64,000 nt of DNA from an uncultured beta proteobacterium (lineage in GTDB: Bacteria > Pseudomonadota > Gammaproteobacteria > Burkholderiales > JAEUMW01), in contig CAVRDD010000030.1 in the NCBI GenBank assembly GCA_963719715.1, positions 92,140 to 156,139 on the forward strand. The letters run 5' to 3'. A program made the translations under genes and the position numbers. Each line of letters opens with the position of its first letter. The stretch's first letter is position 1. Positions 23,936 to 62,500 of this stretch are shown one piece after another. A model generated the notes under the pieces. That model searched no databases. It was not told where the DNA came from and saw only the letters and a program-made list of their open reading frames with translations.

Positions 23936-24059
23936 CAGCTTACCGCTTCCGCCCGAAATTCCAGCGTGTATACCCCCTTCGGCATCCGTTCCATCTGCGT
24001 CCTCCGTTCGTCCAATTCTACGAATCGTCGAACTCTTTTTTTTCAGCCTACCTCAAAGC

Positions 24060-28805: not shown

Positions 28806-28807
28806 CG

Positions 28808-30317: not shown

Positions 30318-30329
30318 CGTGACGCCGGA

Positions 30330-30669
30330 TCAGGTGTCGCTCGCGTCGGCGTCGGCGGTGCGATCCCGACGCGAGCGTTGCGGCTGCCGGTCGCCTCGAA
30401 GAGCCGCAGGAGCAGCGCGACCGCGAGCGCGGTCGCAGCGAAGGCGACGACGAGCCCGGTGATGGTGAGCGCCTGCAGCACCGGATCGCCGCCGAGCCCG
30501 GCCGCGGCGCCGCGCCGCGCGACCACGCCGAAGATCAGGAACACGCCGCTGCCGAACAGGTTGAACGCGAGGATCTTGCGCAGCGGATCGGGATTCGTGA
30601 CCAGGCCGTAGAGGCCGAGCCCGACGAGCGCGGCGCTGCACGAGGCCGAGCAGAGTCGATGGAGTTCAT
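30330..30669 (-). pseudogene. mnhC: Mrp/Mnh-type antiporter subunit C (NuoK-like), with frame breaks.
   Basis: The sequence AALVGLGLYGLVTNPDPLRKILAFNLFGSGVFLIFGVVARRG...VLQALTITGLVVAFAATALAVALLLRL is present. Its ATG overlaps the upstream stop (ATGA). Confidence 0.55.
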
Positions 30670-31617: not shown

Positions 31618-31910
31618 GCGGGGGGATCCTGGTTGCGCGCGACGCGCGCGATGAGCTGCGCGACGGTCGCACCCGACAGCAGCACGAGCAGCCACACGCA
31701 CACGAGCTTCACGCGCCACGAGCGTGCCGTCGACGCGCGGCAGCAGCCCGAGCACGATGAGACCGAGGCCCAGGTTGTCGGCCTTGGAGAGCGCGTGCAG
31801 GCGCGTGAGCGTGTCGGGAAAGCGGAGCAGGCCCACCGTTCCGGCGAGGTAGAAGAAGCGCGCCCGCGAGCACGGCGACGATGCGTGAAGAGGTCGAGTA
31901 CGAGCGTCAT
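31614..31910 (-). pseudogene. mnhG: Mrp/Mnh-type antiporter subunit G, with frame breaks.
   Basis: MTLVLDLF, FFYLAGTVGLLRFPDTLTRLHALSKADNLGLGLIVLGLLP and KLVCVWLLVLLSGATVAQLIARVARNQ lie in different frames. The ATG overlaps the mnhF stop (ATGA). Confidence 0.55.
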
Positions 31911-32198
31911 TCGCGGTCGGCGGCTCGGGGCGTGGCGTCGCGGTCGCGGCGCCGTGCGGTCTTGGCGAGCGCCACCGACACGAATGCTGCGAGCAAGGCG
32001 CAGTGTGAGGGAGACGTCGATCGCGGCGTAGCGCTCGACGCCTTCGGCGAAGAGGAGCAGCGCGCCGATGCCGCCCGTTCCCAGCAGTTGCACCGCCATG
32101 ATGCGGTCGGCAGCACCGCGCGCGCGCAGCAGCGGCTTCAGGCCGACCGCGGTGAGCAGCAGCACGAAGGCCGCGGCGGCAAGGAGGAATGTCGTCAT
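31907..32198 (-). pseudogene. mnhF: Mrp/Mnh-type antiporter subunit F, with at least one frame break.
   Basis: MTTFLLAAAAFVLLLTAVGLKPLLRARGAADRIMAVQLLGTGGIGALLL...IDVSLTL is followed by ALLAAFVSVALAKTARRR in the next frame. Confidence 0.6.
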
Positions 32199-32679
32199 CG
32201 CGGCGCCTCGGGAGCAAGACGCCGGCCACCAGCGCCTCTTCCATCCCCAGCGATTCGACCACCGGCTGATTCACGTCGAGACAGTGGTAGCGGAGCACGC
32301 TGCCGTCGTCGGCGATGGGCACCGTGCCCGGCATCAGGCTCGTGAGCGATGCGAAGGCGTTGCGTCACGATACCGCGTTCGAAGCGGCACGAATACTCGA
32401 CGAAGCCGGGCGCGAGCGGCAGGCGCGGGTCGAGCGCGCGCTTGCGCGACGTCCCAACCGGCGACCACCGATTGCCAGGCGAAGCGGCCGACGAGGCGGG
32501 CCAGGGCGGTCAAGCGGATGCGGCGGCGGCGAGCCGGGGACGAGGCGCAGACTCACCCACGCGGCGGCGGCGGCGGTGACGATGCCGGCGGCGACATCGA
32601 CCGGGTCGGTGCCGATCAGCACGATCCAGAACGCGAGATAGGCCGCACCCCGGATCAGCGCAGCCCGCGCGTTCGTCAT
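32195..32679 (-). pseudogene. mnhE: Mrp/Mnh-type antiporter subunit E, with at least three frame breaks.
   Basis: MTNARAALIRGAAYLAFWIVLIGTDPVD, RIRLTALARLVGRFAWQSVVAGWDVAQ, RALDPRLPLAPGFVEYS and SLMPGTVPIADDGSVLRYHCLDVNQPVVESLG occur in successive frames. The TGA overlaps the mnhF ATG. Confidence 0.55.
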
Positions 32680-32695
32680 CGTGCTTGCGGCAGCG

Positions 32696-33274
32696 TCAGT
32701 CGCCGCAGAGCAGCCGTACCCGGCGCTCGGCCAGGTCGAACTCCGCGTCGGTCTGTGCCGCGAGCAACTGGTTCTTGGCGGCGACGCAGGCGTCCGCCTG
32801 CTGCGCAGCAGCCGGTGTCGCCGCCGCGGCACCCGGCGCGCAGCGGGCGTCGTCGACCAGGCGCAGGTTGTTGAACTGACCGCGCTCCACGGCGACGCAG
32901 TCGCCGACGCGCAGCCCGGCTTCGTCCGTCACCATGGTGATGGTGCCGCCGCCGACCAGGATCGTGTACTGGAAGGCCTGACCCCGTGTGGCCATCCTGC
33001 CGAGTTGCTGCCCCGCCACGGCGCCGCCGACGCCGCCCAGGATGCGGTTGCTGCCCGAGCGCCCAGAACCGACCGCAGCGCCGAGTGTGCCGCCCAGCAA
33101 TGCGCCGCCAACCTGTGCGCCGCTGTTGTCGGTGGTGACGAGGCTGACGTTCGTGATGCGACCGTACTGTACGCTGGACTGGGCCCATGCCGCACCCGAT
33201 GGTGCCGCCAGTGCAAGCAGGACCAGCAGCGTGCGCCAGCCGTTGGCGCGCGGGATCTCTCGTCTCAGGCGCAT
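32696..33274 (-). CDS. Secreted glycine-zipper domain protein (SlyB/17-kDa-antigen-like).
   Basis: I use the internal ATG (MRLRREIPRANGWRTLLVLLALAAPSGAAWA) of ORF 32696..34456. The Gly-zipper reads GGALLGGTLGAAVGSGRSGSNRILGGVGGAVAG. Confidence 0.6.
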   Translation of the reverse strand: MRLRREIPRANGWRTLLVLLALAAPSGAAWAQSSVQYGRITNVSLVTTDNSGAQVGGALLGGTLGAAVGSGRSGSNRILGGVGGAVAGQQLGRMATRGQAFQYTILVGGGTITMVTDEAGLRVGDCVAVERGQFNNLRLVDDARCAPGAAAATPAAAQQADACVAAKNQLLAAQTDAEFDLAERRVRLLCGD

Positions 33275-36200
33275 CTCATCTCCCTTGCAAGGCCTGGTTT
33301 GAAACTCAAGTCGCCGCTGCGGTGGTGGCCGGCCTTGGCGGCTCCGCCGCGCCCGGCTTTGCCCTTGAAGACGGTCACATACACGGTGGGCAGGAACACC
33401 AGCGTGAGCAGAGTCGCCACCAGGAGGCCGCCCATGATCGCGAAGGCCATCGGCCCCCAGAACACCGTCGGCGCGATCGGGATCAGGCCGAGCACGGTCG
33501 AGATCGCGGTGAGCGACATCGGCCGCAGGCGCGAAGTGGCGGCGGCGACGACCGCGTCCCACACGTTCTTGCCCTCGGCGCGGTCGGTCTCGATCTGCAC
33601 GATCAGGATCACCGCGTTCTTCGCGATCATGCCGAGCAGCGAGAGGATGCCGAGGATTGCGACGAAGCCCAGCGGACGGTTGAACAGGAGCAGCGCCGCG
33701 ACCACGCCGATGAGGCCGAGCGGCAGGATCGCGAGCACGATCCGCCAGCCGGCGGAAGCTCTGCAGCTGGAACATGAGCACGGTCAGCATCAGCGCCAGC
33801 ATGAGCGGCACGACGGCGAACACCGATGCGCTCGATGCCGCGCTTTCCTCGGCGATGCCGCCGGTGTCGATCCGGTACGATTTCGGCAGGCGCGCGTTCA
33901 GCTCGGCCATCTTCGGCTCGAGCGCGCTCACCACGTCGTCCGCCAGCACGCCCGGCACGAGGTCGGCGATCACGGTCAGCGTCGGCACGCGGTTGCGCCG
34001 CCAGATGAGCGGATACTCCTGGTCGTATTCGAATGTGGCGAACTGACTGAGCGGCACCGTGCGCCCGCCCGGCAGCGGTACCTGCATCGCGCGCAGCGTG
34101 TCGAGTGCAGCGCGCTGGTCGTCGGTGGCGCGGGCGACCACGTCGACGAGATAGATGCTGTCGCGGACCTGGGTCACCGTCGCACCGGCCACGGTGGCGT
34201 TGAGGGTGGCCGCGATCGAGCGCGAGCTCACGCCGAGCCGGCGAGCCTGGTCCTGATCGATCTTGACGCGCAACTGGCGCGAGGGCTCCATCCAGTCGTA
34301 GTTGGTTTGTCGCGTGCCCGGTACTGCGGCGACGACCTGCGCCAGGTCCTTGGCGATCATCCGCACCTGCTCGACGTCCGGTCCGCTGACGCGGTACTGG
34401 ATCGGCCATCCCGACCGGCGGACCGAGTTCGAGCGGTGCGACGCGCGCGACGACATCCGGGAACTGCTCCTCGAGCAGCTTCTCCAGCCGCGGTTGCAGG
34501 CGCTGCCGGGCCTCGACGTCCTTCGCGACCACCACCATCTGTCCGAAGAACGCGTTTTGCAGCTGCACGTCGAGCGTCAGGTAGAAGCGGATCGCGCCGC
34601 GGCCGACGTAGGTGCTCCAGTGGTCGATGTCCTTGTCCTGCGCCAGGATCTCTTCCAGCTTCTCGACCGTTTCCTGGGTGGCGAAGATCGACGCGTTCTG
34701 GCGCAGCGTCAGGTCCACCGTGAGCTCCGGTCGATCCGAAGACGGGAAGAACTGCCGCGGGACGAAGCGCACGAGGTAGATGGCTGCGACGAACGCCAGC
34801 AGCGTGACGCCGATGGTGAGCCATTTCGCGCGCATGGCGGCCGCGAGGAAGCGGCTGTAGCCTTCCAGCAGCTTGCTCGGCTTGGCATCCTTGCCCTCTG
34901 CCGGCGGCTTCAGGAGCGCCATGCCGATGACCGGGGCGAAGATGACGGCGACGAACCACGACACGATGAGCGCGATGCCGACGACGGCGAAGATCGAGAA
35001 CGTGTACTCGCCCGCCGAGCTCTTGGCGAAACCGATCGGAACGAAGCCCGCGATCGTGATCAGTGTGCCGGCAAGCATGGGCGCGGCGAGATTCTTGTAG
35101 GCGAAGGTGGCAGCGTCTTCCTTGCTGTCGCCGGCGGCGAGGCGTCGAATCGCCGCATCGACCGTTGTCATCGCGTCGTCGACGAGCAGGGTGAGCGCGA
35201 TGATCAGCGCACCCAGTGAGATACGCTGCAAATCGATGCCAGTGGCGTCCATCACGGCGAAGACGACGGCCAGCGTGAGCGGGATGGCGAGCGCGACCAC
35301 GGTGCCGGGGCGCACGCCGAGGCTCAGGAAGCTGCAGACGAGAATGATGAGGATCGCCTGCCACAGCGATTCCATGAATTCGCCGATGGCGGTATCGACC
35401 GTCACCGCCTGATCCGAGACGACCGTGGACTCGATGCCTACCGGCAGCGTGCTCTGGATCGCGGCCATTTCCTTCTTGAGATTGGCGCCGAGCGCGAGGA
35501 TGTCGCCGCCATCGCGCATCGCGATCGCGAGTCCGATCGCCGACTTGCCGTTCACGCGAAACATCGGATCGGGTGGATCGACGAACCCGCGCCGCACGTT
35601 GGCGACGTCGCCGAGGCGAATATTGCGATCACCGACGCGGAAATTGAACGAACGGATGTCTTCTTCGTTATCGAAGGCACCCGACACGCGCAGCATGACC
35701 CGCTCCTGACGCGTGTCGAGAACGCCGGCCGGACGCACGATGTTCTGCTGCTGAAGCGCTGCCACCAGGCTCGGGAAGTCAAGGCCGAGGCCGGCCAGGC
35801 GCTCGGTCGAAAACTCGATGAAGATCTGCTCGTTCTGTGCGCCGAGGATCTCGACCTTCGACACGTCCGGCACTGTCAGCAGGCGCGAGCGAACCCCCTC
35901 GACATAGTCGCGCAGTTCGCGCTGGCTGAAGCCGTCGGCGGAAAAGCCATAGATGATGCCGAAGGTATCGCCGAAGTCGTCGTTGAAGCCCGGGCCGATG
36001 ACCCCCGCCGGCAGCGTGAGGCGGATGTCGTTGATGTTGTTGCGTACCTGCTGCCACACGCCTGGCACCTCATCGGGCGGAGTCGAGCCCTTGAGGTTGA
36101 CGAACATCGTGGTGAAGCCGGGTCGCGTGAAGCTGCGGATGAAGTCGAGATGGCGCGTCTCCTGCAGCCTGCGTTCGATGCGTTCGGTGACCTGGTCGAG

Positions 36201-36386
36201 CGTCTCCTCCATCGTGGCGCCGGGCCACGCCGCAAAGACGATCATGGTGCGGAAGGTGAATGCCGGATCCTCGGCGCGCCCGAGCCGCAGGAACGAGATC
36301 GCGCCGGCGACCACGGAGACCAGCATCAGGAAGATCACGAGCGATCGTCGACGGATCGCCCACTCCGACAGATTCGGACCGATCAC
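33265..36386 (-). pseudogene. RND efflux transporter permease (AcrB/AcrD/AcrF superfamily), operon 1, with two frame breaks.
   Basis: The N-terminus reads MIGPNLSEWAIRRRSLVIFLMLV...GRAEDPAFTF. The coding sequence passes through ORFs 33627..36386, 32696..34456 and 33265..33738, with breaks near 34409 and 33742. Confidence 0.85.
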
Positions 36387-48699: not shown

Positions 48700-49137
48700 T
48701 TGCTGATCCATGGCGTGGAAAGGCAAGTGGAGGCAGCCATGAAAACGGCACGGCGCAAGCAGGTCCCAAACACCCTACGTTACGCTCTCGACGACGCGCA
48801 GCCGCGTGGCCTGAACTGCGCAGACCTCTGCACCGAATCGCGCAGGCACCGCGGCAGCGGCGGCCGCAGCGAGGAGAATGCCGATCTTGGCTTTCGCCCC
48901 GCTTTCCGCGACGATGCCACCGGCGAGGTCTACGCATCGTGCTTCGTCGATGGTCGACCGGCGCCGTTGCATCTCTATGACGGGCTGCCAGACGACGTGG
49001 TCATAGCACGCAGCGCGTGCGGACACGTCAGCGCGGTCAAAGGATCGCTGGTCTCCGGCTTCCTTCGCGGCGGCTCTTTCTATACGCGCGAGGAAGCCGC
49101 GGCAGTCGTTCGCGAAGCCTTGCCGGCCGCTGCCTGA
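48700..49137 (+). CDS. Hypothetical protein. A start at 48739 (MKTARRKQ) is possible.
   Basis: The ORF fills a gap with no better alternative on either strand. I recognise no family. Confidence 0.3.
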   Translation: MLIHGVERQVEAAMKTARRKQVPNTLRYALDDAQPRGLNCADLCTESRRHRGSGGRSEENADLGFRPAFRDDATGEVYASCFVDGRPAPLHLYDGLPDDVVIARSACGHVSAVKGSLVSGFLRGGSFYTREEAAAVVREALPAAA

Positions 49138-49295
49138 GAGCTTTTCCACGTCGCGCCTGCACTCCTGCGGGCGCCGCCGTCGGCCGTGATAGTTTCTTGA
49201 TAAATCCGTGAGCGGGCCGTGACCCGCGTGGACGAGACTTTCGTCCAACAGGGTTCGCCATCGCGGCCCGCCATCGAGGGACGACGGAAGTGGAC

Positions 49296-49454
49296 ATGCC
49301 CCCGCAACGCGCGGCCGAAGCCGCCCTCTTTGCCGTGACGCGGTCACGTCGCCTGGCCGCCGATGGGGCGTTCTGGCTGGTGCTGCTGTTGCTGCCAGGA
49401 TCCTTCCTGCTGTTGCCCGTCTGGCTCTGGTGGAAGCACCGCGGTTCCAACTAA
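49296..49454 (+). CDS. Possible 52 aa small membrane protein. It is below the ORF-track length cutoff.
   Basis: I translated it by hand as MPPQRAAEAALFAVTRSRRLAADGAFWLVLLLLPGSFLLLPVWLWWKHRGSN. It has one TM helix and lies 90 nt upstream of the response regulator. Confidence 0.2.
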   Translation: MPPQRAAEAALFAVTRSRRLAADGAFWLVLLLLPGSFLLLPVWLWWKHRGSN

Positions 49455-49546: not shown

Positions 49547-50251
49547 ATGCAACGCAACGTGCTTGTGATCGAGGACCAGCAGGACATCGCCGAGCTGATC
49601 AAGCTTCATCTCGGCGATCTCAACTGCGAAGTGCGTCTCGCGTTCGACGGCATCGCGGGGCTGGCCGAGGCCGAGGCCGGTGCGTACGACCTCATCATCC
49701 TCGATCTCATGCTGCCCGGCTTGGATGGCCTCGAGGTCTGCAAGCGCATACGGGCCGGGTCGCGCTACACGCCGATACTCATGTTGACTTCGAAGTCGTC
49801 CGAGCTCGACAGGGTACTGGGGCTGGAGCTCGGTGCGGACGACTATCTCACCAAGCCCTTCAGCGTGCTGGAGTTCCTCGCGCGGGTGAAGGCCATCTTC
49901 AGGCGCGGCGATGCGCTGACCCCGGCCGCCGCGGCCGAGGCGCCGAAAACCATCCGCGCCGCCGACCTCGAGATCAACCCGGAAAAGCGCGTGGTCACGC
50001 TCGGCGGCCGGCCGGTGGAACTGACCGCGAAGGAATTCGACCTGCTCGCGCATTTCGCGCGCAACCCCGGGCGCGTGTACAGCCGCGGGCAGCTGCTTGA
50101 CGTGGTCTGGGGCTACAGCCACAGCGGCTACGAGCACACAGTCAATTCCCACATTAACCGCCTGCGCACCAAGATCGAAGCCGACCCCGCGAAGCCGCGC
50201 TATATCCTCACGGTGTGGAGCGTCGGCTACAAGTTCAACGAAAATCCCTAG
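49547..50251 (+). CDS. OmpR/PhoB-family response regulator.
   Basis: The receiver domain reads VLVIEDQQDIAELI...LIILDLMLPGLDG...TSKSSE...ADDYLTKPF. It is followed by a winged-helix output domain ending in YILTVWSVGYKF. Confidence 0.9.
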   Translation: MQRNVLVIEDQQDIAELIKLHLGDLNCEVRLAFDGIAGLAEAEAGAYDLIILDLMLPGLDGLEVCKRIRAGSRYTPILMLTSKSSELDRVLGLELGADDYLTKPFSVLEFLARVKAIFRRGDALTPAAAAEAPKTIRAADLEINPEKRVVTLGGRPVELTAKEFDLLAHFARNPGRVYSRGQLLDVVWGYSHSGYEHTVNSHINRLRTKIEADPAKPRYILTVWSVGYKFNENP

Positions 50252-50260
50252 GGCCGCGCG

Positions 50261-51736
50261 ATGCGGTTCAACTCGCTCTACGCGAAGCTCGCACTTTCCC
50301 TCGCTGCGCTTTTCGCCGTGCTCGGTGTGCTCTTCTTCGTCATCATGCGCTACTCGCTGGCCGAGTACCGCGATGCCGTCAGCCAGGAACTCAATCGCGA
50401 CGTTGCCACCGAGGTTGCGTCCGAGATCCGCGATGCCGTGAATGACCCGGTGGCGCTCAAGCGGCGCATCGAGTCACTCATGCACTTGAACCCCGGCATC
50501 GAAGTCTACGTCGTCGATATGTCAGGTGCGATCCTGGCGTTCTCCGCCGCACCCGGAAAGGTCGTTCGCAGCACCGTCGATCTCGCGCCCATCCGCGCGT
50601 TCATCGGCGGCAGTCGCTTTCCCATCCGCGGTGACGACCCGCGTGATGCCGCGCGTCGCAAGATCTTCGCTGCGGCGCCAGTGGCCGCCGAGGGCGATGG
50701 TGCGGGATACATCTACGCGATCCTCGGCGGCGAGCTGTACGACGCCGTCGCCGGCCATCGCGAGACGCGTTACATCCTCAATCAGAGTCTTTCGATCATG
50801 CTCGCCGGCCTCGTGCTGGCGCTCGTGGCGGGCTTCACCGTGTTCGCCTTCGTCGCGCGCAAGCTGGAGCGCCTGGCGGCGGCGATGGAGGCTTTCAAGA
50901 ACGGTGCGTTCCGCGAGAAGATCCTGTTCTCGCCGCTGCCGCCCCCGGGACGGGCCGACGAGATCGACAGGGTCGCCGCGACCTACAACGAAATGGTGGA
51001 GCGGATGACGGTGATGATTCGTGAACTGCAACGGCAGGAGTCCGTGCGCCGTGATCTGGTGGCGAACGTTTCGCACGACCTGCGCACGCCAATCGCATCG
51101 CTGCGGGGCTATATCGAGACCCTCATCATCAAGGGCGACAGTCTGTCGGCGGAGGAGCAGCGAACCTATCTCTCGATCGCGACCCAGCAGACCGAGCGAC
51201 TCGCGCAACTGGTGGCCGAGCTCTTCGATCTCGCCAAGTTCGAAGCCAAGGAAGTGACTGTACATGCCGAGGCGTTCCCAATAGCCGAACTGATTCAGGA
51301 CGTGGTGCAGAAGTTTGCGCTGGAGGCCGACCGGCGCCGGGTCGACATCCGTGCCGAAGTGGGCGCAGAGCTCCCGTTCGTCATGGCGGACATCGCGCTT
51401 GTCGAGCGTGTGCTGCAGAACCTGATCGACAACGCGCTGCGCCACACGCCGGCGGGCGGCAGCGTCACCGTCACCACGCTGGCGCGCGAGCGCGACGTGC
51501 TGATCTCCGTGGCCGATACCGGCGTCGGCATTCCGAAAGAACACCTGCCGCACGTCTTCGAGCGGCTTTACCGTGTAGACAAGAGTCGCGACAGTCGCTC
51601 CGGCGGTGCCGGCCTGGGGCTCGCGATCGCCCGTCAGATCGTCGAGCTGCACGGCGGCCGCATTACCGTGGAGAGCGAACAGGGTCGCGGCGCGGTGTTC
51701 GCCTTTTCGCTGCCGCTTGCCGGCGACGTCGGATAA
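50261..51736 (+). CDS. Sensor histidine kinase (2 TM, periplasmic domain, HAMP, HisKA, HATPase_c).
   Basis: The H-box is VSHDLRTPIASLRGY, the N-box is QNLIDNALRHTP and the G-boxes are DTGVGIP and GGAGLGLAI. Confidence 0.9.
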   Translation: MRFNSLYAKLALSLAALFAVLGVLFFVIMRYSLAEYRDAVSQELNRDVATEVASEIRDAVNDPVALKRRIESLMHLNPGIEVYVVDMSGAILAFSAAPGKVVRSTVDLAPIRAFIGGSRFPIRGDDPRDAARRKIFAAAPVAAEGDGAGYIYAILGGELYDAVAGHRETRYILNQSLSIMLAGLVLALVAGFTVFAFVARKLERLAAAMEAFKNGAFREKILFSPLPPPGRADEIDRVAATYNEMVERMTVMIRELQRQESVRRDLVANVSHDLRTPIASLRGYIETLIIKGDSLSAEEQRTYLSIATQQTERLAQLVAELFDLAKFEAKEVTVHAEAFPIAELIQDVVQKFALEADRRRVDIRAEVGAELPFVMADIALVERVLQNLIDNALRHTPAGGSVTVTTLARERDVLISVADTGVGIPKEHLPHVFERLYRVDKSRDSRSGGAGLGLAIARQIVELHGGRITVESEQGRGAVFAFSLPLAGDVG

Positions 51737-51769: not shown

Positions 51770-53344
51770 GTGGCGCTCTACTGGAAAGTCCTGGCGCCGC
51801 TTGCGCTGGTGTGGCTCGTCATCGCGGGCAGTGTGCGATGGTTCTGGGCGCCGCACGCCATCGCGCAGGAGGAGTCGCAGTACCACGAACGTGTCGGGCG
51901 CGCGCTGGAACCGCTGACGCTCGAACTGGCGCCGCTTCTGAAGGACGGGCGCATTGCTGCTTCGGCGCCGTTGCTTGACGAAGCGCTGAGGTCAAACCCG
52001 TCCTGGACCGCGCTCGAACTCAAGGACCGCGCGGGACAGTTCGTCCGCCGCGCGGCTGCCGCGCAGGGTCGCGCTACTTCGGCAGCGGACGAGCGCGCGT
52101 GGGAGCAGCCCGTCATCGACGGTGCGGCGGTGCTCGGCTGGCTCACCGCGCGCGTCGACCTGGGACCGGGTTTGGGGGCCATCCGCGCTGGCGAGCGTGA
52201 GCTGATCCTGCTGCTGCTTGCCGGGTTGGCCGCTGCCCTGGCCGCAACGGCTTTCGCCCTGCGGTTCTTCGTGTCTCGTCCGCTCGCGCGCATCACCGAA
52301 TCGGCCAAACTGCTGGCCGCCGGCGGCCAGGCGAATCTCGACGGCGCCGACCGGGGCGACGATGTGGGGAGACTTGCGGCGACCGTCGGCCGTCTCGGCG
52401 ACGCGCTCGCCGAGCGCCAGCGGACCGTGGAAGACGAGGCGGCGCGCCGCGGTGCGGCCGAGGACCGCATGCACGAGAGCGAGGAGCGCTACACGCTGGC
52501 GGTGCGCGGGGCCGACGACGGGCTCTGGGAATGGGATGTCGGCAGCGACCACGTGTATTACTCACCGCGCTGGAAGTCGCTGCTCGGCTACACCGAGGAT
52601 GAGATTGGCGACAGCCTGGAGGAGTGGCGCGGACGCGTTCACGCGGACGATCTGGAAGCGACGCTCGCCGCGTTGCAGGCCCATCTCGACGGCATCACCC
52701 CGCGCTTCGAGAGCGATCATCGGCTGCGTCACAAGAACGGGCGTTACCGCTGGGTGCTGGCGCGCGGCGCCACCTTGCGCACGTCCGCCGGCAAGCCGTA
52801 CCGGCTGGTGGGACTGAACACCGACATCACCGCACGCAAGCGGTCGGAGGAGGTGCTGGTCTCACTTGCGGAAGGTCTCGCGGCGGCGCGCGGCGACGAG
52901 TTCTTCCGCAGCCTCGTGCGCAACTTTGCGGGTGTGCTGGGCGTTCGCTACGCCTTCATCGCCGAGTGCGCGAACTTTCCGACCACGCGTGTGCGCAAGC
53001 TCGCCTCTTGGAAGAACGATACCTGGGCGGAGGCGAACGAGTTCGATCTGGCGGGTACTCCGTGCCAGGAGACCGTGAACCTCGGGCGGGTATGCGTGTA
53101 CCAGCGCGACGTGGGCGTCATCTATCCGCGTGAGGCCGGCTTCGAGAGTTATCTCGGCATTCCCATTTTCGACAGCGCTGGCCGTGTGATCGGACACCTC
53201 GCCTGCTACAACACCGAGCCGATGCAGGAAGATCTGCCGGTGCAGTCGATATTCGCGCTCTTCGCGGTGCGCGCCGGCGTCGAGATGGAGCGGCGCGCGC
53301 TCGAACAGAAGCTGCAGACTCTGCAGCCGCGCGCGGTCGGCTAA
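51770..53344 (+). CDS. Membrane protein with HAMP, PAS and GAF domains and no recognisable output domain.
   Basis: There is an N-terminal TM segment, a periplasmic region of about 130 aa and a second TM segment. A HAMP region follows (RPLARITESAKLLAAG...). The PAS region reads ERYTLAVRGADDGLWEWDVGSDHVYYSPRWKSLLGY...HRLRHKNGRYRWVLARG. The GAF-like C-terminus reads YLGIPIFDSAGRVIGHLAC. Confidence 0.75.
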   Translation: MALYWKVLAPLALVWLVIAGSVRWFWAPHAIAQEESQYHERVGRALEPLTLELAPLLKDGRIAASAPLLDEALRSNPSWTALELKDRAGQFVRRAAAAQGRATSAADERAWEQPVIDGAAVLGWLTARVDLGPGLGAIRAGERELILLLLAGLAAALAATAFALRFFVSRPLARITESAKLLAAGGQANLDGADRGDDVGRLAATVGRLGDALAERQRTVEDEAARRGAAEDRMHESEERYTLAVRGADDGLWEWDVGSDHVYYSPRWKSLLGYTEDEIGDSLEEWRGRVHADDLEATLAALQAHLDGITPRFESDHRLRHKNGRYRWVLARGATLRTSAGKPYRLVGLNTDITARKRSEEVLVSLAEGLAAARGDEFFRSLVRNFAGVLGVRYAFIAECANFPTTRVRKLASWKNDTWAEANEFDLAGTPCQETVNLGRVCVYQRDVGVIYPREAGFESYLGIPIFDSAGRVIGHLACYNTEPMQEDLPVQSIFALFAVRAGVEMERRALEQKLQTLQPRAVG

Positions 53345-53547
53345 GAACCCTCCGATTTGCCCCTCCGTGCAGGCAATCAGAGGTCCCTAAGGCGCGTGCC
53401 GGTTGATGCCGTGATCGAAATGTGAGACTTGCGTGACCGCGGCGTGACCCTCTACCGACACACTGTTACACTGCGGCTCGGCATTATGCCCGTCGAAAAT
53501 TTCTCGGGTATGGGCCATTTACTGTTAACCACGTTGGAGGATTAACA

Positions 53548-54036
53548 ATGTTTACATCTGATGCCGCGCGCCGAATGCGCGTCGCTGCCACCGCCACCGC
53601 TTTCCTGCTTTGCGCACCGTTTGCCACTGCCGATGACATGGTGTCGTTTGCCACCGGCGGCTATGCGAGCGGTCTCAGGACCGGCGACATGATGAAGAAG
53701 ATCGACACCAACAAGGACGGTATGGTGTCGAAGGACGAGTGGGTCGCATATCAGGAAAAGGTGTTTGTCATGCTGGACAAGGATAAGACCATGGTGATCG
53801 ACGAGAAAGAGTTCATGGCCCCGTCGAGTGAACTGGCGTCCTTTGCCACCGGCGGCTATGCGAGCGGGCTGCAGAGCAAGGAGATGATGCACAAGATCGA
53901 CGCGGATGGCGACGGCAAAGTTTCGCATGACGAATACATCGCCTACCAAGTCACGGTATTCGAGATGATGGATGCCGGCCACAGCGGCATGGTCGGACCC
54001 AAGGAGTTTCTCGGCAAGGGCCTTCCATCGAAGTGA
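53548..54036 (+). CDS. Secreted EF-hand calcium-binding protein, an internal two-fold repeat, Met-rich.
   Basis: A signal peptide ends in ...CAPFATA. The canonical EF loops are DTNKDGMVSKDE and DADGDGKVSHDE. Two weaker loops are DKDKTMVIDEKE and DAGHSGMVGPKE. The repeat SFATGGYASGL occurs twice. A GGAGGA RBS is present. Confidence 0.75.
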   Translation: MFTSDAARRMRVAATATAFLLCAPFATADDMVSFATGGYASGLRTGDMMKKIDTNKDGMVSKDEWVAYQEKVFVMLDKDKTMVIDEKEFMAPSSELASFATGGYASGLQSKEMMHKIDADGDGKVSHDEYIAYQVTVFEMMDAGHSGMVGPKEFLGKGLPSK

Positions 54037-54141
54037 CGCCGCCGTCGCCGCGGTGAAGCGGGCTGGCGCATGAACGTGCGCGGAACCCGCGCCGCGGCGA
54101 ACGGGTCCCAGCCAACAGATCGCCAAACGCAGAGATTCACC

Positions 54142-54642
54142 ATGAAACGCCGCGGTTTTTTGACCGGCGTGGCCGGGTTGTTCGCCGCCGCCGCATTGCC
54201 TGCGGTCGGCAAGGAGAAACCGTCCGTGACGCCCCTGAACAAATCGAAATCCGAGTGGAAGGCCATACTGCCCGCGAATCGCTACGCTGTGCTCTTCGAG
54301 GAAGACACGGAGCGCGCCGGTACGAGCCCGCTCAATGCAGAGAAGCGCGCCGGTACGTTCGTTTGCGCCGCCTGCTTCCTGCCGCTCTTCGACTCCTCGC
54401 AGAAGTACGAGAGCGGCACCGGCTGGCCGAGCTTCTTCGATGCGCGGCCGGAGGCGGTGGGCACGAAGAAGGACTATCGGCTCGTGTGGCCGCGCACGGA
54501 ATACCACTGCGCGCGCTGCGGCGGGCATCAGGGACACGTCTTCGACGATGGCCCGAAGCCGACCGGGCTGCGCTACTGCAACAACGGTCTCGCGCTGGAA
54601 TTCGTGCCGGCGGGGGAGGCCTTGCCGGCGCTGCGGACATGA
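54142..54642 (+). CDS. msrB: Peptide-methionine (R)-S-oxide reductase with a twin-arginine signal peptide.
   Basis: The Tat-type signal is [23 protein letters not shown]. Two zinc-binding CxxC pairs (CAAC, CARC) and the catalytic RYCNNG are present. Confidence 0.9.
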
Positions 54643-55235
54643 AGCGTTCGCTCGCGTGCCTGGCCGCGGTCGCCGCGCTCCTGTGCTTGCGGACCGCGGC
54701 TGCGGAGGAGAAGGAGGCCACCGCCATCTTTGCCGGCGGATGCTTCTGGTGTGTCGAGGCGGACTTCGAGAAGTTGCCGGGCGTGATCAAGGCGGAGTCC
54801 GGCTATACCGGCGGCAAGGTCCAGAATCCGACCTACGAGCAGGTGAGCGCCGGCGGCACCGGCCACGCGGAAGCCGTGCGCGTGTGGTACGACCCGCAGA
54901 AGGTCACGTACGAGCAGTTGCTGGATTATTTCTGGCACCACGTCGACCCGACGGTGAAGGATCGCCAGTTCTGTGACGTGGGGGCGCAGTACCGTACAGC
55001 GATCTTCTACGAGAACGACGCTCAACGGGCAGCTGCCGAGGCGAGCAAGGCGGCGCTGGAGAAGGGCGGTCGCCTGCCGCGGATCTATACCGAGATCGCA
55101 CCGGCCGGCACGTTCTACCTGGCCGAGGACTATCACCAGGACTACTACAAGAAGAATCCCATCCGCTATCGCTACTACCGGACGGGCTGCGGTCGCGACG
55201 CGCGCGTCGCAGAAGTGTGGGGGACCAAGCCGTAG
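54639..55235 (+). CDS. msrA: Peptide-methionine (S)-S-oxide reductase with a Sec-type signal peptide.
   Basis: The signal is [22 protein letters not shown]. The active site is [11 protein letters not shown], with GHAEAV and YHQDYY also present. The ATG overlaps the msrB stop (ATGA). Confidence 0.9.
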
Positions 55236-55915
55236 CGCGCACGGCGGCGCCCGACCCACACGGCGAGCGGCACCCGGCGACCGTCGTTTTCGTCCACGGC
55301 CTGTGGATGCGCGGCCCGACGTTGAGTCTTCAGGCGCGGCGGATCGGGCGCTGCGGACTGCACACCGACTGCGGATTCTCTTACACTTCGGTAAGCGGAA
55401 CGCTCGACCTTCACGCGCGGCGGCTGGCACGCTACGTGGCCGGTGTGGATGCGCCACGCGTGCATCTCGTCGGTCACAGCATGGGTACGCTCGTGATTCT
55501 GAAGATGCTCTCCGAATTCCACGATTCGCGCCTGGGGCGGGCCGTTCTGCTCGGCCCGCCGTTTCATGGCAGCCGCGCGGGTCGCGCAGTGGGCGGGCTC
55601 CGTCCAGGACGCTGGATGCTCGGCCGCAGCTACGCGCTCTGGTCGCAGGAGGAAGCGGTTCCGCCGCCGTGCGACGTCGACGTAGGCGTCATCGCGGGGA
55701 CGATGCCGCTCGGGGTGGGGGCGCTTCTGCGCGTCCTCGAGAGTCCGCATGACGGCATTGTGACGTGCCGGGAAACACTCGTTCCGGGAGCACGTGACCA
55801 CATCCGCTTGCGGGTGAGCCATGCCGGGATGCTGGTTGCGCCCTCGGTGGCGAGACAGATACTCGCGTTCCTCGAGGGCGGACGCTTCCAGCGCCCGGAG
55901 GCGGAGGTGGTTTGA
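55217..55915 (+). CDS. Alpha/beta hydrolase (lipase/PGAP1-like).
   Basis: Motifs are VVFVHGLW, the nucleophile elbow GHSMG, PHDGIV and SHAGML. The start is uncertain. It overlaps the msrA 3' end. Confidence 0.7.
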
Positions 55916-56976
55916 AGAGTCTGATTGCTGCTGCCGTGTTTGCGGCACTTGCGCTCTCCGGCTGCACCGCCGCGCCTTACTACTGGCAGGCGGCCAGTGG
56001 TCAACTCGAGCTCTGGCAGAAATCCCGCCCGATCGACGACTGGCTTGCCGATCCCGACACGAAGCCCGAGCTCAAGGCGCGGCTTACGCAGGCGCAGGAG
56101 ATCCGGGGCTTCGCGAGCAGCAATCTCGGTCTTCCCGACAACGGTAGCTACCGCAAGTTTGCCGAACTCGCCCGGCCCTACGTCGTCTGGAACGTGTTCG
56201 CTGCCCCGGAGCTTTCGCTGCAGCCGGTGCAATGGTGTTTCCCCGTCGCGGGCTGCGTGAGCTATCGCGGCTATTTCGCGGAGCAGGGCGCCCGCGGATT
56301 CGCCGACGGGTTGCAGGCCGAAGGCTACGACACCTATGTCGGGGGCGTGCCCGCGTACTCCACGCTAGGGTGGTTCGACGATCCGCTGCCGAGCACTGTC
56401 ATCGGCTATCCCGACACCGAGCTCGCGCGGCTGATCTTCCACGAGCTTGCGCACCAAGTCGTCTACGTGAAGGACGACACGACCTTCAACGAGTCATTCG
56501 CCTCGGCCGTCGAGCAGGAAGGCGTCAGTCGCTGGGTCGAGGCGCGCGGCTCGCCCGAGAAGCTCGCGCAGTTTCAGCGTGGGCAGGCACGCAAGCGCGA
56601 GTTTGTCGCGCTCGTCATCGAGTATCGGGGCAAGCTGGCGGCGATCTATGCCTCGGATGCCGGCGACGACGAGAAGCGGGCACTGAAGGCGCAGACATTC
56701 ACGGCGATGCGCGACGATTACGCCGCGCTCAAGCGGAGCTGGGGCATGCCGAGCGGGTACGACGCGTGGATCGCCGGGCCGCTCAACAACGCGCAGATCG
56801 CCTCGGTCGCGAGCTACACCCAGCAGGTGCCGGCTTTCGAGGCGCTGCTTGCGCAGGAGCAGGGTGACCTCAAGCGATTCTATGCGGCGGTGAAGGACCT
56901 CGCGAAGCTGTCAAAGGCCGAGCGGGACGCAAAGTTGGCGGCGCTGGGGGCGGGGACCACATCCGACGCACGGTGA
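55912..56976 (+). CDS. Putative zinc aminopeptidase lipoprotein (COG4324/Aminopep family).
   Basis: The lipobox is AALALSGC. The sequence WCFPVAGCVSYRGYF and the metal motif FHELAHQ are present. The TTG start overlaps the upstream stop. Confidence 0.7.
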   Translation: MKSLIAAAVFAALALSGCTAAPYYWQAASGQLELWQKSRPIDDWLADPDTKPELKARLTQAQEIRGFASSNLGLPDNGSYRKFAELARPYVVWNVFAAPELSLQPVQWCFPVAGCVSYRGYFAEQGARGFADGLQAEGYDTYVGGVPAYSTLGWFDDPLPSTVIGYPDTELARLIFHELAHQVVYVKDDTTFNESFASAVEQEGVSRWVEARGSPEKLAQFQRGQARKREFVALVIEYRGKLAAIYASDAGDDEKRALKAQTFTAMRDDYAALKRSWGMPSGYDAWIAGPLNNAQIASVASYTQQVPAFEALLAQEQGDLKRFYAAVKDLAKLSKAERDAKLAALGAGTTSDAR

Positions 56977-57202: not shown

Positions 57203-58589
57203 TTATGCGGGGACCAGTTCTGGTTTTGGTGCTTTTAGCATCAACCACATTGCCATTCTTCTTAAATTCTGCGCAGTTGCTGCAAGCAAGAACTCATCTT
57301 CGGCACCACTGAAGCCACGCAATCGCAACTTGTCGAGTTTCAGGATGCGCTTGAGATGAGCGAACAGCATTTCGACCTTTTTTCGATCCTTGCGTGACTG
57401 TGCGTAGGCATCGGTTGTGGCGATGGCGCGAGCCACGTCGCGGGCGTCCTCATGGAGGCTGCGGGCGATCTTGCGAATCGGCGTGTTCGGACAGCACTGG
57501 TTCTTCATCGGGCATTTGGCGCAGTCGAACTGGCTTGAGCGATAGACGGTGGTGTCGGCTTTCGTAATATGTGTGCGGGGATTCTTGAAGGGACGCCAAT
57601 TGGAGCGAAGTGCCTTGCCTGCGGGGCAACAGTATTCGTTGGTCTGCGCATTCCACTCAAACTTGCTGGACGAGAATGTTCCATCCTCACGCTCGGTCTT
57701 GTCCCAAACCGGCACATGCGGTTCGATCTGCTTCTCATCGACCAGCCAGCCAAGCATGGCAGCTGAACCGTAGTTGGTGTCGCCGACCAAGCGTTCTGGC
57801 TTCAAGTCAAATTTGTCCTCGACCCGATCAATCATCGTTCGGGTTGCTTCAACCTCGGCTGCTGAATTGACGGCCGACGCTTCGACATCGACGATGATGC
57901 CGGCCTTAAGATCGATCAGATAGTTCGTCGAATAGGCGAAGAAGGCCGGACCGCCGGGAGCACAAGTCCAGGAGGCCGCGGGATCTGTCCGCGAGATGGA
58001 TTTACGCGGCGTACCCGGATCGTTCGTCACCTCCAATGCCGCCAGGTACTCGCGCACCGGTCGAGTTGCTTCGTCCGGGTTGCCCCAGTCAATCGGCTCA
58101 TTCCCCGGCACACCGCTCTGCCGCTGGGCATCGGCCTTGACGATGCTGGCGTCGGTCGCAAAGCCTTCGCCGCGTACCAGTCCTTCGGCCATGCAGCGTT
58201 GGAGGACGCCTCTCGAACAAATGGCGAAAGGCTTCGCTGTCCCGAAAGCGACCGTGCCGGTTCTTGGAGAACGTCGAGTGATTCGGCACCGGATCTTCAA
58301 GGCCCAGCCGGCAGAACCAGCGGTAGGCCAGATTGAGATGGACTTCCTCGCACAGGCGCCGCTCTGACCGAATGCCGAAGCAGTAGCCGACGATTAGCAT
58401 GCGGATCATCAGTTCTGGATCAATCGAGGGTCGCCCCGTGTGGCTGTAGTAGCTCGCCAGATGCTGGCGCAGTTCGCTCAGGTCGAGGAAGTGGTCGATG
58501 CCGCGCAGCAGATGATTCCGAGGGACGTGACTGTCAAGGTTGAAGGAGTAGAACAAGTGCTCCTGAGCCCCTCCTTGCTGCCCCATCAT
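57203..58589 (-). pseudogene. IS1182/IS5-family DDE transposase, with one frame break.
   Basis: The N-terminus reads MMGQQGGAQEHLFYSFNLDSHVPRNHLLRGID...RFRDSEAFRHLFE, followed by VLQRCMAEGLVRGEGFATDASIVKADA... in the next frame. An extra base sits near 58210-58211. The C-terminus ends in AQNLRRMAMWL. Confidence 0.75.
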
Positions 58590-58643
58590 CGTTGCACCCC
58601 GACATCGCGATGCTATATGCATACTGTACCAGGGACCAGCCAG

Positions 58644-58658
58644 CAGCGGGGGCTTTTC
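58644..58658. repeat. IS terminal inverted repeat core, right copy.
   Basis: TTTTCAACACAATAG is the perfect reverse complement of 57098-57112. Confidence 0.85.
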
Positions 58659-58861
58659 AACACAATAGACCCTAAAGGGTCGTTCGGCCCGGCTCAAAGC
58701 GGACGTCGAAGCTCTGCGAGGCAAACCGTTGGTTGATATGCCAGACCATAGCCTCAGCTAGCGTAGGGTGCCGAGTACCCTGCAGCGTAGTAATAGTGGC
58801 GGCACGCCGGCAATACGCTGCGGGGCCGGCGCGCCGATTTCTTCTGCTAGCCTGCGTCCGG

Positions 58862-59511: not shown

Positions 59512-59571
59512 TTGATCTCTCCTCCAAACCTATGCAGGGTTGTGTTCACTCAAGGTAATCTCTTCCTTCTG

Positions 59572-62500
59572 CTAGGCAGGAACAGGCTCCGTTCGAACCT
59601 CGGGAGCGGCGTGCTCGCTCTTCGCGACCGGCTTGATCTTGAACCAGATGGCATACAAGGCCGGCAGGAACACGAGGGTGAGCACCGTTCCGCCGAAGGT
59701 TCCACCGATCAAGGTGTACGCCAGCGTTCCCCAAAAGACGGAATGGGTGAGAGGAATGAACGCCAGCATGGCGGCGAGCGCCGTCAGAATCACCGGACGG
59801 GAGCGCTGCACGGTGGCCTCGACCACGGCATCGAACGGCGCTAGTCCATCCTTCTCGTTTGTGCGTATCTGCCCGATCAGGATGAGCGTGTTGCGCATCA
59901 GGATGCCGGAAAGCGCGATCAGCCCGACCAGCGCGTTGATGCCGAACGGCTGCTGGAACAGCAGCAAGGTTGGAATGACCCCGATGAGGCCCAGCGGCGC
60001 CGTGGCGAACACCATCATCATCAGCGGAGATCGAGCGGACCTGGAAGATGATGATGATCAGCGTAAGGGCGACCATGATGGGAAACAGTGGCGCCAGTGC
60101 GCGATTCGCCTTGCCGGATTCCTCGATGGAACCGCCCTCCTCGATTCGGTAGCCCGGCGGCAGTTGGGCGATGATCGGCTGGAGTTCCTTCCACACGGCG
60201 GTGGACACGTCAGGCGGCTGCAAGCCCTCGGCAATGTCTCCACGCACGGTGATCGTCGGCGTGCGATCGCGGCGGCGCAGGATCGGGTCTTCCATGCGGA
60301 TTTCCACCGTTCCGATCTGCGACAGCGGAATGCGTTGGCCAGCCGTTCCAACCAAGGTGAAATCGGTGATCTTGCTCGGGTCAAGCCGTGCGTTTCCGGC
60401 AGAACGGGCAGCGATCTGCACCGAGCGGATGTCTTCGCGCACGTCCGTGATCGGGATGCCGCTCAACAGGAACTGAAGCTGTTGGGCCACATCGCTGGAC
60501 GTCAAGCCGATGCTCTGGAGCCTGTCTTGATCGAGCGAAAAACGAAGCGTGGGCACGCGCTCGCCCCAATCGGCATTGACCGTTCTCATCTCGGGACTGG
60601 CCTGCATTACGGCACGCACCTGCTCTGCGATGTCGCGGAGCTTGCTGGGGTCGGGCCCCATCACACGGAAAGCCACGGGAAAGGGCGAATACGGACCGAA
60701 CACCAGTTGGGTAACGCGCACCCGAGCCTCCGGCGCCAGACCGTCGGCCAATGCCTGTCGCAGTCTGAATTTGAGCGCTTCGCGCGCCTCTTCGCTTTGC
60801 GTCAACGTGACGATCTTCGCGAACGAGGGATCGGGTAGCTCGGGCGCCATGGCGAGGTAGAAGCGCGGTGACCCTTGTCCGACGTAGGCGGTAACGGTTT
60901 TGGCTTCCGGCTGCCCGGCCAGCCAAGCTTCGACCTTGGCAGTGGCGGCACTCGTCTGCTCGATGGATGTGCCATACGGCATTTGCACTTCGACCAGCAC
61001 CTCCGGGCGATCGGAAGTCGGAAAGAACTGCTTCTTCACCACGCTCATGCCCAATACCGCGACAAGGAACGCGCCGACTACGCTGCCCGCGACCAGCCAT
61101 TTGCGGCGAATCACGAAACCCAGAAGCTGGCGAAAGCGGTTGTACCGCGGCGTGTCATAGATCGCCTCGTGCCCGCCCTCATGCTTCTTGATGTCCGGGA
61201 GCAGCTTCACTCCCAGGTAGGGCGTGAACACGACGGCAACGACCCACGATGCGATCAGCGCGATGCCGACGATCCAGAACATGTTGCTGGTGTACTCGCC
61301 GGCGGTCGACTGGGCGAAACCGTTCGGCATGAAGCCGATCGCGGTCACCAGGGTACCGGCGAGCATGGGCGCGGCAGTATGGCTCCATGCATAGGCCGCT
61401 GCGCGGATGCGGTCGTAGCCTTCCTCCATCTTCACGACCATCGTCTCGATGGCGATGATCGCGTCGTCGACCAGCAGCCCCAGCGCCAGTATCAAGGACC
61501 CGAGCGTGATCCGGTCGAAGTTCTTGCCGGTGGCCGCCATGACGATGAACACAGCCGCCAAGGTCAGAGGAACCGCCGCCGCGACAACGATGCCGACGCG
61601 CCATCCCATGCTGAGAAAGCTCACGAGCATGACTACGCCGAGGGCGACGAAGAACTTGACCATGAACTCGTCGACCGACTCCCGGATATTGACCGACTGA
61701 TCCGTGACTTTGGACAGGCTCATCCCCAGCGGCATTTCCGCGTTGATCGCCGCCGCTTCTCGCCTCCAGCGCCTTGCCGAGGTCGAGGCCATTCCACCCC
61801 TCACGCATGACCACGCCAAGCAGCAAGGTCGGCTCGCCGTTGTGGCGGATCAAGAAAGTGGCCGGGTCTTCGTAGCCGCGCTTCACTTCGGCGATGTCGG
61901 ACAGCTTCAGCGTGCGCCCTTGCGCGGCGATGGGCGTATTGCGGATGCCGTCCAGATCATCGAAAGCGCCGTCCAGCCGGAGGAAGATTTGCGGCCCCTT
62001 GGCTTCGATCGATCCGCCGGGCGTCATGACGTTCCGGCTGTTGAGCGCGGCGAAGATGTCCCGCGGGGAGACGCCCAAGGTGGCGAGGCGGTCATAGGAG
62101 AACTCGACGAAGATCCTCTCCGCCTGCTCGCCGATGATGTTCACCTTCTTCACGCCAGGCACGTGAAGCAGTCGTTGTCGCAACGCCTCGGCTTCGCGGA
62201 CGAGGTGCCGTTGAGGCTCACCCTTCGCCTTCAGCGCGTACAGCGCAAAGGTCACGTCGGAATATTCGTCGTTCACCATTGGACCGATCACGCCACGCGG
62301 CAACTGAGCGGCCTCGTCGCCGAGTTTCTTCCGCGCCTGATAGAACTCATCGGGGACCTCGGCGGGCGGGGTACTGTCGCGCAGGACCACCGTGGTGAAC
62401 GCCAGGCCCGGGCGCGTAAAGGTCTCGGTTCGGTCATACCAGCGGAGTTCCTGCATCCGCTTCTCCAACTTTTCGGCGACCAGCTCCTCCATCTCCTTTG

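Follow-up and report, generated by a model that had tools for sequence, protein, structure and literature searches.

The locus described here lies in a 64,000-nt stretch of contig CAVRDD010000030.1 from an uncultured beta proteobacterium of soil (the whole stretch is hereafter called the window). Five co-directional genes at 53548-56976, identified from open reading frames (ORFs) and Pfam and NCBIfam matches, encode a methionine-rich EF-hand protein, the methionine sulfoxide reductases (Msr) MsrB and MsrA, an alpha/beta hydrolase and a PF10023 peptidase. The whole co-directional string also includes, ahead of them, a 52-aa ORF and the genes of a response regulator (RR), a sensor kinase and a HAMP-PAS-GAF protein. 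Loci of relatives compared with the window are designated by L numbers. The features of the string are:

49185-49224, plus strand: operator copy 1, CGTGA-N6-CTTGA-N6-CGTGA-N6-CGTGA, score 19/20
49296-49454, plus strand: ORF of a 52-aa small membrane protein, read from the sequence, heading the two-component operon
49547-50251, plus strand: OmpR/PhoB-type response regulator with a receiver domain and Trans_reg_C
50261-51736, plus strand: sensor histidine kinase with two transmembrane segments, a periplasmic domain of ~140 aa, HAMP, HisKA and HATPase
51770-53344, plus strand: membrane-anchored HAMP-PAS-GAF protein, without output domain according to its domain matches
53410-53449, plus strand: operator copy 2, CGTGATCGAAATGTGAGACTTGCGTGACCGCGGCGTGACC, four YGTGA repeats with an 11-bp period
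53548-54036, plus strand: methionine-rich four-EF-hand protein with a Sec signal (ORF and domains) and a lanmodulin-like predicted fold
54142-54642, plus strand: MsrB, N-terminus MKRRGFLTG (TIGR00357, 133.3 bits for a cutoff of 113.05; PF01641, E = 6e-41)
54639-55235, plus strand: MsrA with a Sec-type signal and a GCFWC active site (TIGR00401, 200.6 bits for a cutoff of 108.1)
55217-55915, plus strand: alpha/beta hydrolase (Pfam), GTG start
55912-56976, plus strand: putative zinc peptidase of PF10023 ('Aminopep') with a HELAH motif and the lipobox LSGC

The gene order, the domains and the methionine content that an initial annotation had read from the letters of this stretch were confirmed. 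The same is true of the overlapping stop and start codons reported for the four genes from msrB to the peptidase: msrB and msrA overlap by ATGA, msrA and the hydrolase gene by 19 nt and the hydrolase and peptidase genes by TTGA, and 105 nt (about 100 in the initial annotation) separate the EF-hand stop codon from the msrB start. The hydrolase start was placed at the GTG at 55217 because it is the sole in-frame start that retains the conserved VVFVHG motif. The two-component system had been placed immediately upstream of the EF-hand gene; it is upstream, but the HAMP-PAS-GAF gene, itself followed by an intergenic region of 203 nt, lies in between. This HAMP-PAS-GAF gene is found 3' of the kinase gene every time (L001, L108, L147-L149, L153 and L154), and homologues of the 52-aa membrane ORF are present in L149, L151 and L153. 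A conserved hairpin or attenuator was looked for in the EF-msrB spacer, the fold of which was no better than shuffled (z = -1.4) and the alignment of which had no covariation; terminator and sigma-70 promoter scans of the operon gave nothing above shuffled expectation. Further upstream, a 145-aa ORF without Pfam match (window 48700-49137; motif GFRPAFRD..LYDGLP..SGF.R.G.FYTREEAA) is kept directly 5' of the operator and RR operon in L147, L151 and L153.

The EF-hand protein has the n-, h- and c-regions of a signal peptide with an AxA site, all kept in relatives. A recount gave 14 methionines in total, of which 12 lie in the 134 residues of the mature part; these 9.0% agree with the earlier count and compare with a background of 1.65% in 12 other window proteins (binomial p = 2.7e-6). 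The four EF loops reported at first are located at residues 53-64, 77-88, 118-129 and 142-153, start with DTNKDG, DKDKTM, DADGDG and DAGHSG and have T, K, A and A at position 2. EF1 and EF3 are canonical, but EF2 has a Met at loop position 6, normally Gly, and EF4 is degenerate. The motif SFATGGYASGL stands before each EF pair, and in the corresponding family (>900 proteins of ~157-165 aa, chiefly from metagenome-assembled genomes (MAGs) of Steroidobacteraceae and other soil Gammaproteobacteria, plus a small betaproteobacterial branch) SFATGGYA[SR]GL is invariant before every EF pair. Plasmid and annotated-genome searches returned only distant EF-hand proteins, with 34-39% identity. Two of such distant proteins (~36% identity) flank a cluster of an extracytoplasmic function (ECF) sigma factor and a 'periplasmic heavy metal sensor' in L146 (NZ_MH547561.1, 1587-4576); this type of cluster occurs on Pseudomonas, Acinetobacter and Klebsiella plasmids, where EF-hand proteins are again paired with envelope-stress regulators.

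The AF2 model of the EF-hand protein has a mean pLDDT of 79 (69 residues at >=90) and a pTM of 0.74. Among solved structures, lanmodulin is the nearest in sequence (6mi5, E = 3e-11), and the best Foldseek match of the model, the sole one with E <= 1e-3, is again lanmodulin (8fns, TM 0.72, rmsd 2.6 A). Like lanmodulin of Methylorubrum extorquens, the protein is predicted to be a periplasmic, compact four-EF-hand domain of ~12 kDa with an inter-loop spacing of 12 residues (12-13 class). Unlike lanmodulin, it has no Pro at loop position 2 and has Asp at position 9 in one loop only, it carries the additional FATGGYA motifs, it is Met-rich and its gene context contains no lanthanide-utilisation genes. 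Membership of the lanmodulin (LanM) family was rejected on the missing Pro and on the score with NF053806, which is far below cutoff (46.8 bits for 135).

MsrB contains two zinc pairs, CAAC (residues 75-78) and CARC (123-126), and the catalytic Cys146 in RYCNNG; there is no further Cys and no resolving Cys, GTGWPSF being found at that place. The two zinc pairs ascribed to this protein in the initial annotation were recovered. As to the twin-arginine translocation (Tat) signal also ascribed to it, the arginine pair is invariant in 120/120 homologues (consensus MNRRQFLxxL), in which F/L and then a hydrophobic residue come next (+2 and +3), although the signal region is 51% identical against 77% for the mature part. 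However, the curated Tat models remain below cutoff (TIGR01409, 13.6 bits for 16.7; PF10518, 11.8 for 22.7). Judged by its conservation, the predicted Tat signal is strong. MsrA, with its active site at residues 34-38, and its orthologues have Sec-like n-, h- and c-regions and AxA sites, in agreement with the Sec signal assigned earlier, and the EF-hand protein, MsrB and MsrA all look exported from these motifs. The hydrolase has no signal peptide. The last gene had been described as a lipoprotein aminopeptidase, which fits the PF10023 match and the lipoprotein signal with its LSGC lipobox. A 166-aa MsrB with the invariant twin-arginine N-terminus, paired with a signal-bearing MsrA, was also observed in Methylotenera, Gallionella, Sideroxydans and Noviherbaspirillum; the order in Methylotenera is msrB-msrA-DUF3047 (L075 7001-8814; L076 1436-3249), with no thioredoxin (Trx), CcdA or DsbD adjoining. 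None of these three was found next to msrBA in L071, L075, L147 and L151 either. The msrA gene is frameshifted in L001, L003, L071 and L072.

The response regulator and the kinase could not be attached to a named system. The RR scored 143 bits with the HprR model (cutoff 353) and 171 with the CopR/CusR family (cutoff 279), and every named NCBIfam equivalog was below cutoff; the sole full-length NCBIfam alignment of the kinase is with the heavy-metal sensor kinases of TIGR01386, at 196 bits for a cutoff of 292. An identification as HprSR, CusSR or CopRS was consequently rejected, all scores being below the model cutoffs. Upstream of the EF-hand gene, an alignment of the intergenic regions defined an operator of four YGTGA direct repeats with an exact 11-bp period, which is the best conserved stretch of this region in both of the gene contexts described below. 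In the window, the pattern occurs only at the two sites listed above (0.05 matches are expected by chance): copy 1 is 111 nt 5' of the 52-aa ORF and copy 2 is 138 nt 5' of the EF-hand ATG. No second operator precedes msrB, the site being 5' of the EF-hand gene only. The distance to the start codon is always 111-148 nt, whether the gene behind it is the EF-hand gene, the RR operon, bufA1, a FATGGYA-repeat gene or a small EF-hand gene.

The operator is also located upstream of the orthologous RR operons of L001, L147-L149 and L153, and accompanies the RR operon down to 78% RR identity (L153). The 141 kb of clade loci contain 21 sites that score at least 19/20, compared with a single one in the 1.31 Mb of other loci. 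This lone non-clade site is 112 nt 5' of the gene of a half-size FATGGYA/EF-hand protein (9 Met in 73 residues), which directly follows another bufferin operon in a Burkholderiales MAG (L068). Regulators of the OmpR/PhoB family classically bind to direct repeats with an 11-bp period, and the adjacent RR is therefore the likely binder of the YGTGA operator. In L153 (5803-7953) and L154 (6857-8995), a DoxX domain fused to an NDH-2-type flavoprotein (712-716 aa) is encoded 5' of the orthologous RR-kinase-PAS-GAF operon, and L154 has an AhpC/Redoxin gene nearby; with such genes around it, the two-component system may be part of a redox-stress neighbourhood.

Linkage was scored by seeking msr genes inside the retrieved flanks of each locus. 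The order EF-msrB-msrA is kept in all close-clade loci (EF-hand protein at least 82% identical) that contain enough DNA, namely the window, L001, L002, L003, L071, L072 and L147-L150; L078 ends just inside msrB. Two types of gene context were distinguished. Type I (window, L001, L002, L078 and L147-L150) has the order two-component system, PAS-GAF gene, EF-hand gene, msrBA, hydrolase, peptidase. Type II (L003, L071 and L072) comprises a 96-aa gene, a FATGGYAR-repeat gene, the EF-hand gene, msrB, msrA, small EF-hand genes (two or three exported EF-hand-pair proteins with 3-6 Met each) and a bufferin operon. The two types share nothing but the EF-msrB-msrA triplet as gene context. The hydrolase accompanies msrBA and the peptidase in L001, L002 and L147-L152, but type II loci and Methylotenera lack it. 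The RR-kinase-PAS-GAF operons of L153 and L154 are without any EF-hand gene; in L153 the peptidase gene stands directly 3' of the PAS-GAF gene, with no EF-hand gene, msrBA or hydrolase gene between them, and the EF-msrBA-hydrolase segment therefore seems to act as an insertable block. The EF-hand/msr linkage is limited to a narrow group of uncultured Burkholderiales-type MAGs. The other EF-hand family loci have no neighbour in common; in Steroidobacteraceae, where a conserved neighbour indicative of the family's function was sought, the best candidate is present in 16 of ~60 loci. Most family members have no sensor kinase nearby. We found no relevant report in the literature of an association between an EF-hand protein and a periplasmic Msr.

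The bufferin operons beside EF-hand and msr genes in sister Burkholderiales MAGs (L003 11343-14037; L071 12931-15616; L072 11417-14100; L068 5147-7717) contain BufA1/DUF2282, MbnB/DUF692, HvfC/DUF2063 and DoxX genes; that of L068 is next to an EF-hand gene. Bufferins are copper-stress metallophores (PMC11626156). In L003, L071 and L072 the bufferin operons stand behind the operator of four YGTGA repeats, which implies two-component rather than SigF/NrsF control in this lineage; further type II copies of the operator are found 5' of the FATGGYA-repeat gene, of the 96-aa gene and of one small EF-hand gene. The FATGGYAR-repeat gene (L003 7421-7819; L071 7439-7831; L072 6223-6615) encodes an exported protein of ~130 aa without Pfam match, in which three FATGGYAR motifs, the same as before the EF pairs, are separated by linkers rich in Ala, Ser, Thr and Val.

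The locus was then compared with known systems. In Azospira suillum, MrpX, a small peptide with 20% Met and 44% charged residues, and MsrP (YedY1Z1) scavenge hypochlorite under SigF/NrsF (PMC4436054). As in that system, a signal-bearing Met-rich periplasmic protein, a proposed recycled methionine sink, is encoded with a periplasmic Msr under a dedicated envelope-signal regulator. However, MsrA and MsrB, which are of the thiol type and for which no electron source is visible, take the place of the molybdoenzyme MsrP supplied with quinol electrons by YedZ, and the regulator is an OmpR-type two-component system instead of the ECF pair SigF/NrsF. Membership of the MrpX/MsrP system was rejected since the methionine content is 9.0% and not ~20%, the protein is predicted to fold and the scanned window ORFs contain no YedY, YedZ or ECF sigma domain. 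The analogy drawn in the initial annotation thus offers a plausible mechanism for an exported Met-rich protein encoded with Msr, but the sequence data do not demonstrate it.

In E. coli, MsrPQ induced by CusSR, and also controlled by HprSR, repairs the Met-rich CusF (PMC9302797). There, and presumptively here, a two-component system induces a periplasmic Msr by which a Met-dependent periplasmic metal-binding protein stays reduced under copper or oxidative stress; the differences are that our RR and kinase score below the cutoffs of these families, that the operator is another one, that the candidate client is an EF-hand protein and not a Cu(I) chaperone and that the enzymes are MsrA and MsrB and not MsrP. 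Classical thiol-type chemistry outside the cytoplasm, in oxidative and hypochlorite defence, is known from the exported MsrAB fusions (Neisseria PilB, Haemophilus influenzae MsrAB and S. pneumoniae MsrAB2; PMC13488963, PMC9404787), which have a Trx, fused or adjacent, and a CcdA or DsbD partner (PMC13488963); according to the 2026 review among these sources, MsrA and MsrB of the single-domain kind are cytoplasmic, apart from one MsrA that is membrane-bound. Unlike these fusions, the present enzymes are encoded by two genes, have two predicted export routes (Tat-type for MsrB, Sec for MsrA) and have no Trx, CcdA or DsbD near. The copper and oxidative-stress regulon of Caulobacter under SigF/NrsF includes bufferin operons and yedY (PMC11626156, PMC4436054); similarly, one operator stands before bufferin, EF-hand and msrBA genes in L003, L071, L072 and L068, but with an apparent two-component regulator and a direct-repeat operator in place of an ECF sigma promoter, and with EF-hand proteins added. 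Finally, EfhP (PA4107) of Pseudomonas aeruginosa, as it is described where cited in PMC12452194, is an EF-hand Ca2+ sensor and resembles our protein as a bacterial extracytoplasmic EF-hand protein tied to stress responses; it differs in being membrane-anchored, with two EF hands, and no Msr linkage has been reported for it. The locus is therefore outside the MrpX/MsrP system, the LanM family and HprSR/CusSR, and is a variant of the theme of a periplasmic Met-rich protein with a periplasmic Msr.

We tentatively favour the interpretation that this is a two-component-controlled envelope stress operon, in which the EF-hand protein would be an Msr client and a recyclable oxidant sink. The OmpR-type regulator encoded next door with its kinase and HAMP-PAS-GAF partner would bind the four YGTGA repeats at its own operon and at the EF-hand gene. 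One transcript would then provide the Sec-exported EF-hand protein, the Tat-exported zinc MsrB and the Sec-exported MsrA and, in this lineage, also the cytoplasmic hydrolase and the lipoprotein peptidase. In the periplasm, hypochlorite-type or copper-driven oxidants would oxidise the thioethers of the EF-hand protein, MsrA would reduce the S-sulfoxide and MsrB the R-sulfoxide; the EF-hand protein would be a privileged client and recyclable oxidant buffer, and both enzymes could repair other envelope proteins too. Since the same operator precedes bufferin operons in sister lineages, the trigger is likely to be copper or oxidative envelope stress, possibly of the hypochlorite type. By analogy, this logic is backed by MrpX/MsrP (PMC4436054), the SigF-regulon bufferins (PMC11626156) and CusSR-MsrPQ-CusF (PMC9302797).

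The export motifs, the high methionine content of the mature EF-hand protein, the linkage in the clade and the shared operator speak for this sacrificial-methionine and repair reading, which the initial annotation had already suggested, but several observations weigh against it. None of ~135 other EF-hand family loci has msrA or msrB in its flanks, including members at 70-72% identity, and family-wide co-conservation was rejected; the co-conservation of the EF-hand gene with msrBA thus holds in every close-clade locus, across two neighbourhoods, but not in the rest of the family. In L151 and L152, a deletion took the RR, the kinase, the PAS-GAF gene and most of the EF-hand gene and left msrB-msrA-hydrolase-peptidase intact: directly 5' of this block, at L151 4177-4760 (and at the equivalent place in L152), there remain the small membrane ORF, a degraded operator and, fused to them, the ~35 final codons of the EF-hand gene, up to ISHDEYITYQVAVFEMMDPGHSGSVGPNEFLGKAR and the stop codon. 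In Betaproteobacteria, msrB-msrA pairs for exported enzymes often occur with no EF-hand gene beside them. A scan of ~50 window ORFs for Trx, DsbD and CcdA domains gave no match, which bears out the earlier statement that no periplasmic reductant is encoded here. Moreover, the candidate sink is a folded 134-residue EF-hand domain with 9% Met, unlike the 20%-Met charged peptide MrpX.

The distribution of the methionines adds to these points. The expectation that the methionine content would not merely be typical of the EF-hand family held only in part: across the family, six Met that are invariant or nearly so occupy helix positions -1, -2, -4 and -5 as counted from the loops, where by analogy with calmodulin they would be core or hydrophobic-patch residues, and members without msr have ~4-9% Met against 9-10.4% in the msr-linked clade. 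This clade is the most Met-rich within the family, and the range of unlinked members overlaps its lower edge, which suggests that Met-richness is largely a family trait. The sole 'extra' Met unique to the msr-linked clade is the Gly-to-Met replacement at EF2 loop position 6. Clade-specific surface methionines were rejected as proof of scavenging, because those at EF1/EF4 loop position 7 and in FAMLD are also found in non-msr members. As the EF-hand family is neither msr-linked nor unusually Met-poor outside this context, the repair reading loses part of its footing on both co-conservation and family methionine content.

A possible, if rather unlikely, alternative is that the EF-hand protein is chiefly a periplasmic metal buffer or chaperone (for Ca2+, lanthanide, or Cu(I) through the Met/His clusters MMHK and EMMDAGHSGM) belonging to a metal-stress regulon, with MsrA and MsrB providing general repair as MsrP does for CusF. 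The closeness to lanmodulin in sequence, fold and loop spacing agrees with such a role, as do the common operator before bufferin operons and the EF-hand gene directly after one of them in L068, the kinase's single full-length match to heavy-metal sensors and a Met-richness that extends through the family irrespective of msr linkage. Against this, the loops lack the Pro of lanmodulin at position 2 and the LanM score is low, no metal transporter or xoxF/lut-type gene is found beside the operon, Cu(I) binding by the protein is pure supposition and the attachment of msrBA to the EF-hand gene in two separate contexts would be left unexplained. Between a sink and a metal-binding role of the EF-hand protein, sequence cannot decide.

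It is improbable that the adjacency only reflects the inherited gene order of a narrow clade, the EF-hand gene and msrBA being independent exported functions that share a promoter region. The confinement of the linkage to EF-hand proteins of at least 82% identity, the variable neighbours of the family elsewhere and the survival of msrBA after the loss of the EF-hand gene in L151 and L152 would suit such an explanation; it fits poorly with a triplet that persists although both flanks differ completely between types I and II, with an operator 5' of the EF-hand gene and none before msrB, and with the additional Met-rich EF-hand genes clustered around msrBA in type II. In calmodulin, the reversible oxidation of Met is well known to act as a switch, and the type I EF-hand gene directly follows the sensor genes under the same operator, which also precedes the FATGGYAR-repeat-only protein in type II; however, a CpxP-like periplasmic co-sensor of the kinase, which would adjust signalling according to its Ca2+ load or to a Met oxidation state that MsrA/B would reset, and possibly through the FATGGYA motifs, is very improbable, as type II retains EF-msrBA without an adjoining two-component system, most family members have no sensor kinase nearby and the RR-kinase-PAS-GAF operons of L153 and L154 have no EF-hand gene.

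Elsewhere in the window, an insertion sequence (IS) transposase on the minus strand (57203-58724; two overlapping ORFs, DUF772 and DDE_Tnp_1_6) lies just 3' of the peptidase gene and is followed by a SnoaL-like gene and then by an RND pump gene that seems truncated or frameshifted (region 59546-61819). Several other genes are split into two ORFs, namely those of pyruvate dehydrogenase E1 and a P-type ATPase (4613-7265, 22884-26298) and of an RND pump (33627-36386), which suggests frameshift errors of a long-read MAG assembly, or pseudogenes. The region 28000-33000 has 70-73% GC, an AT skew of +0.27 to +0.35 and long ORFs overlapping on both strands; its sole Pfam matches are Mrp/Mnh antiporter-like domains on the minus strand, and no tandem repeats were found in it.

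A broader proposal, which we consider doubtful, combines three elements: a lanmodulin-fold EF-hand protein that serves as an enzymatically recycled periplasmic 'methionine battery' or as an oxidant/Cu(I) sponge, an undescribed two-component regulon of four YGTGA repeats that also commands bufferins and would be the counterpart of the SigF/NrsF regulon, and an undescribed periplasmic donor for MsrB and MsrA. The question of this donor is raised more generally by the widespread pairs of Tat-type MsrB and Sec MsrA without an obvious accompanying electron source. If the mechanism favoured above holds, the defence would be transcriptionally tied to the bufferin copper-stress peptides, and sacrificial methionine with a periplasmic reductase would have been built at least twice from unrelated parts, once from a disordered peptide, a molybdoenzyme and an ECF sigma factor, and once from a folded EF-hand protein, thiol-type MsrA and MsrB and a two-component system.

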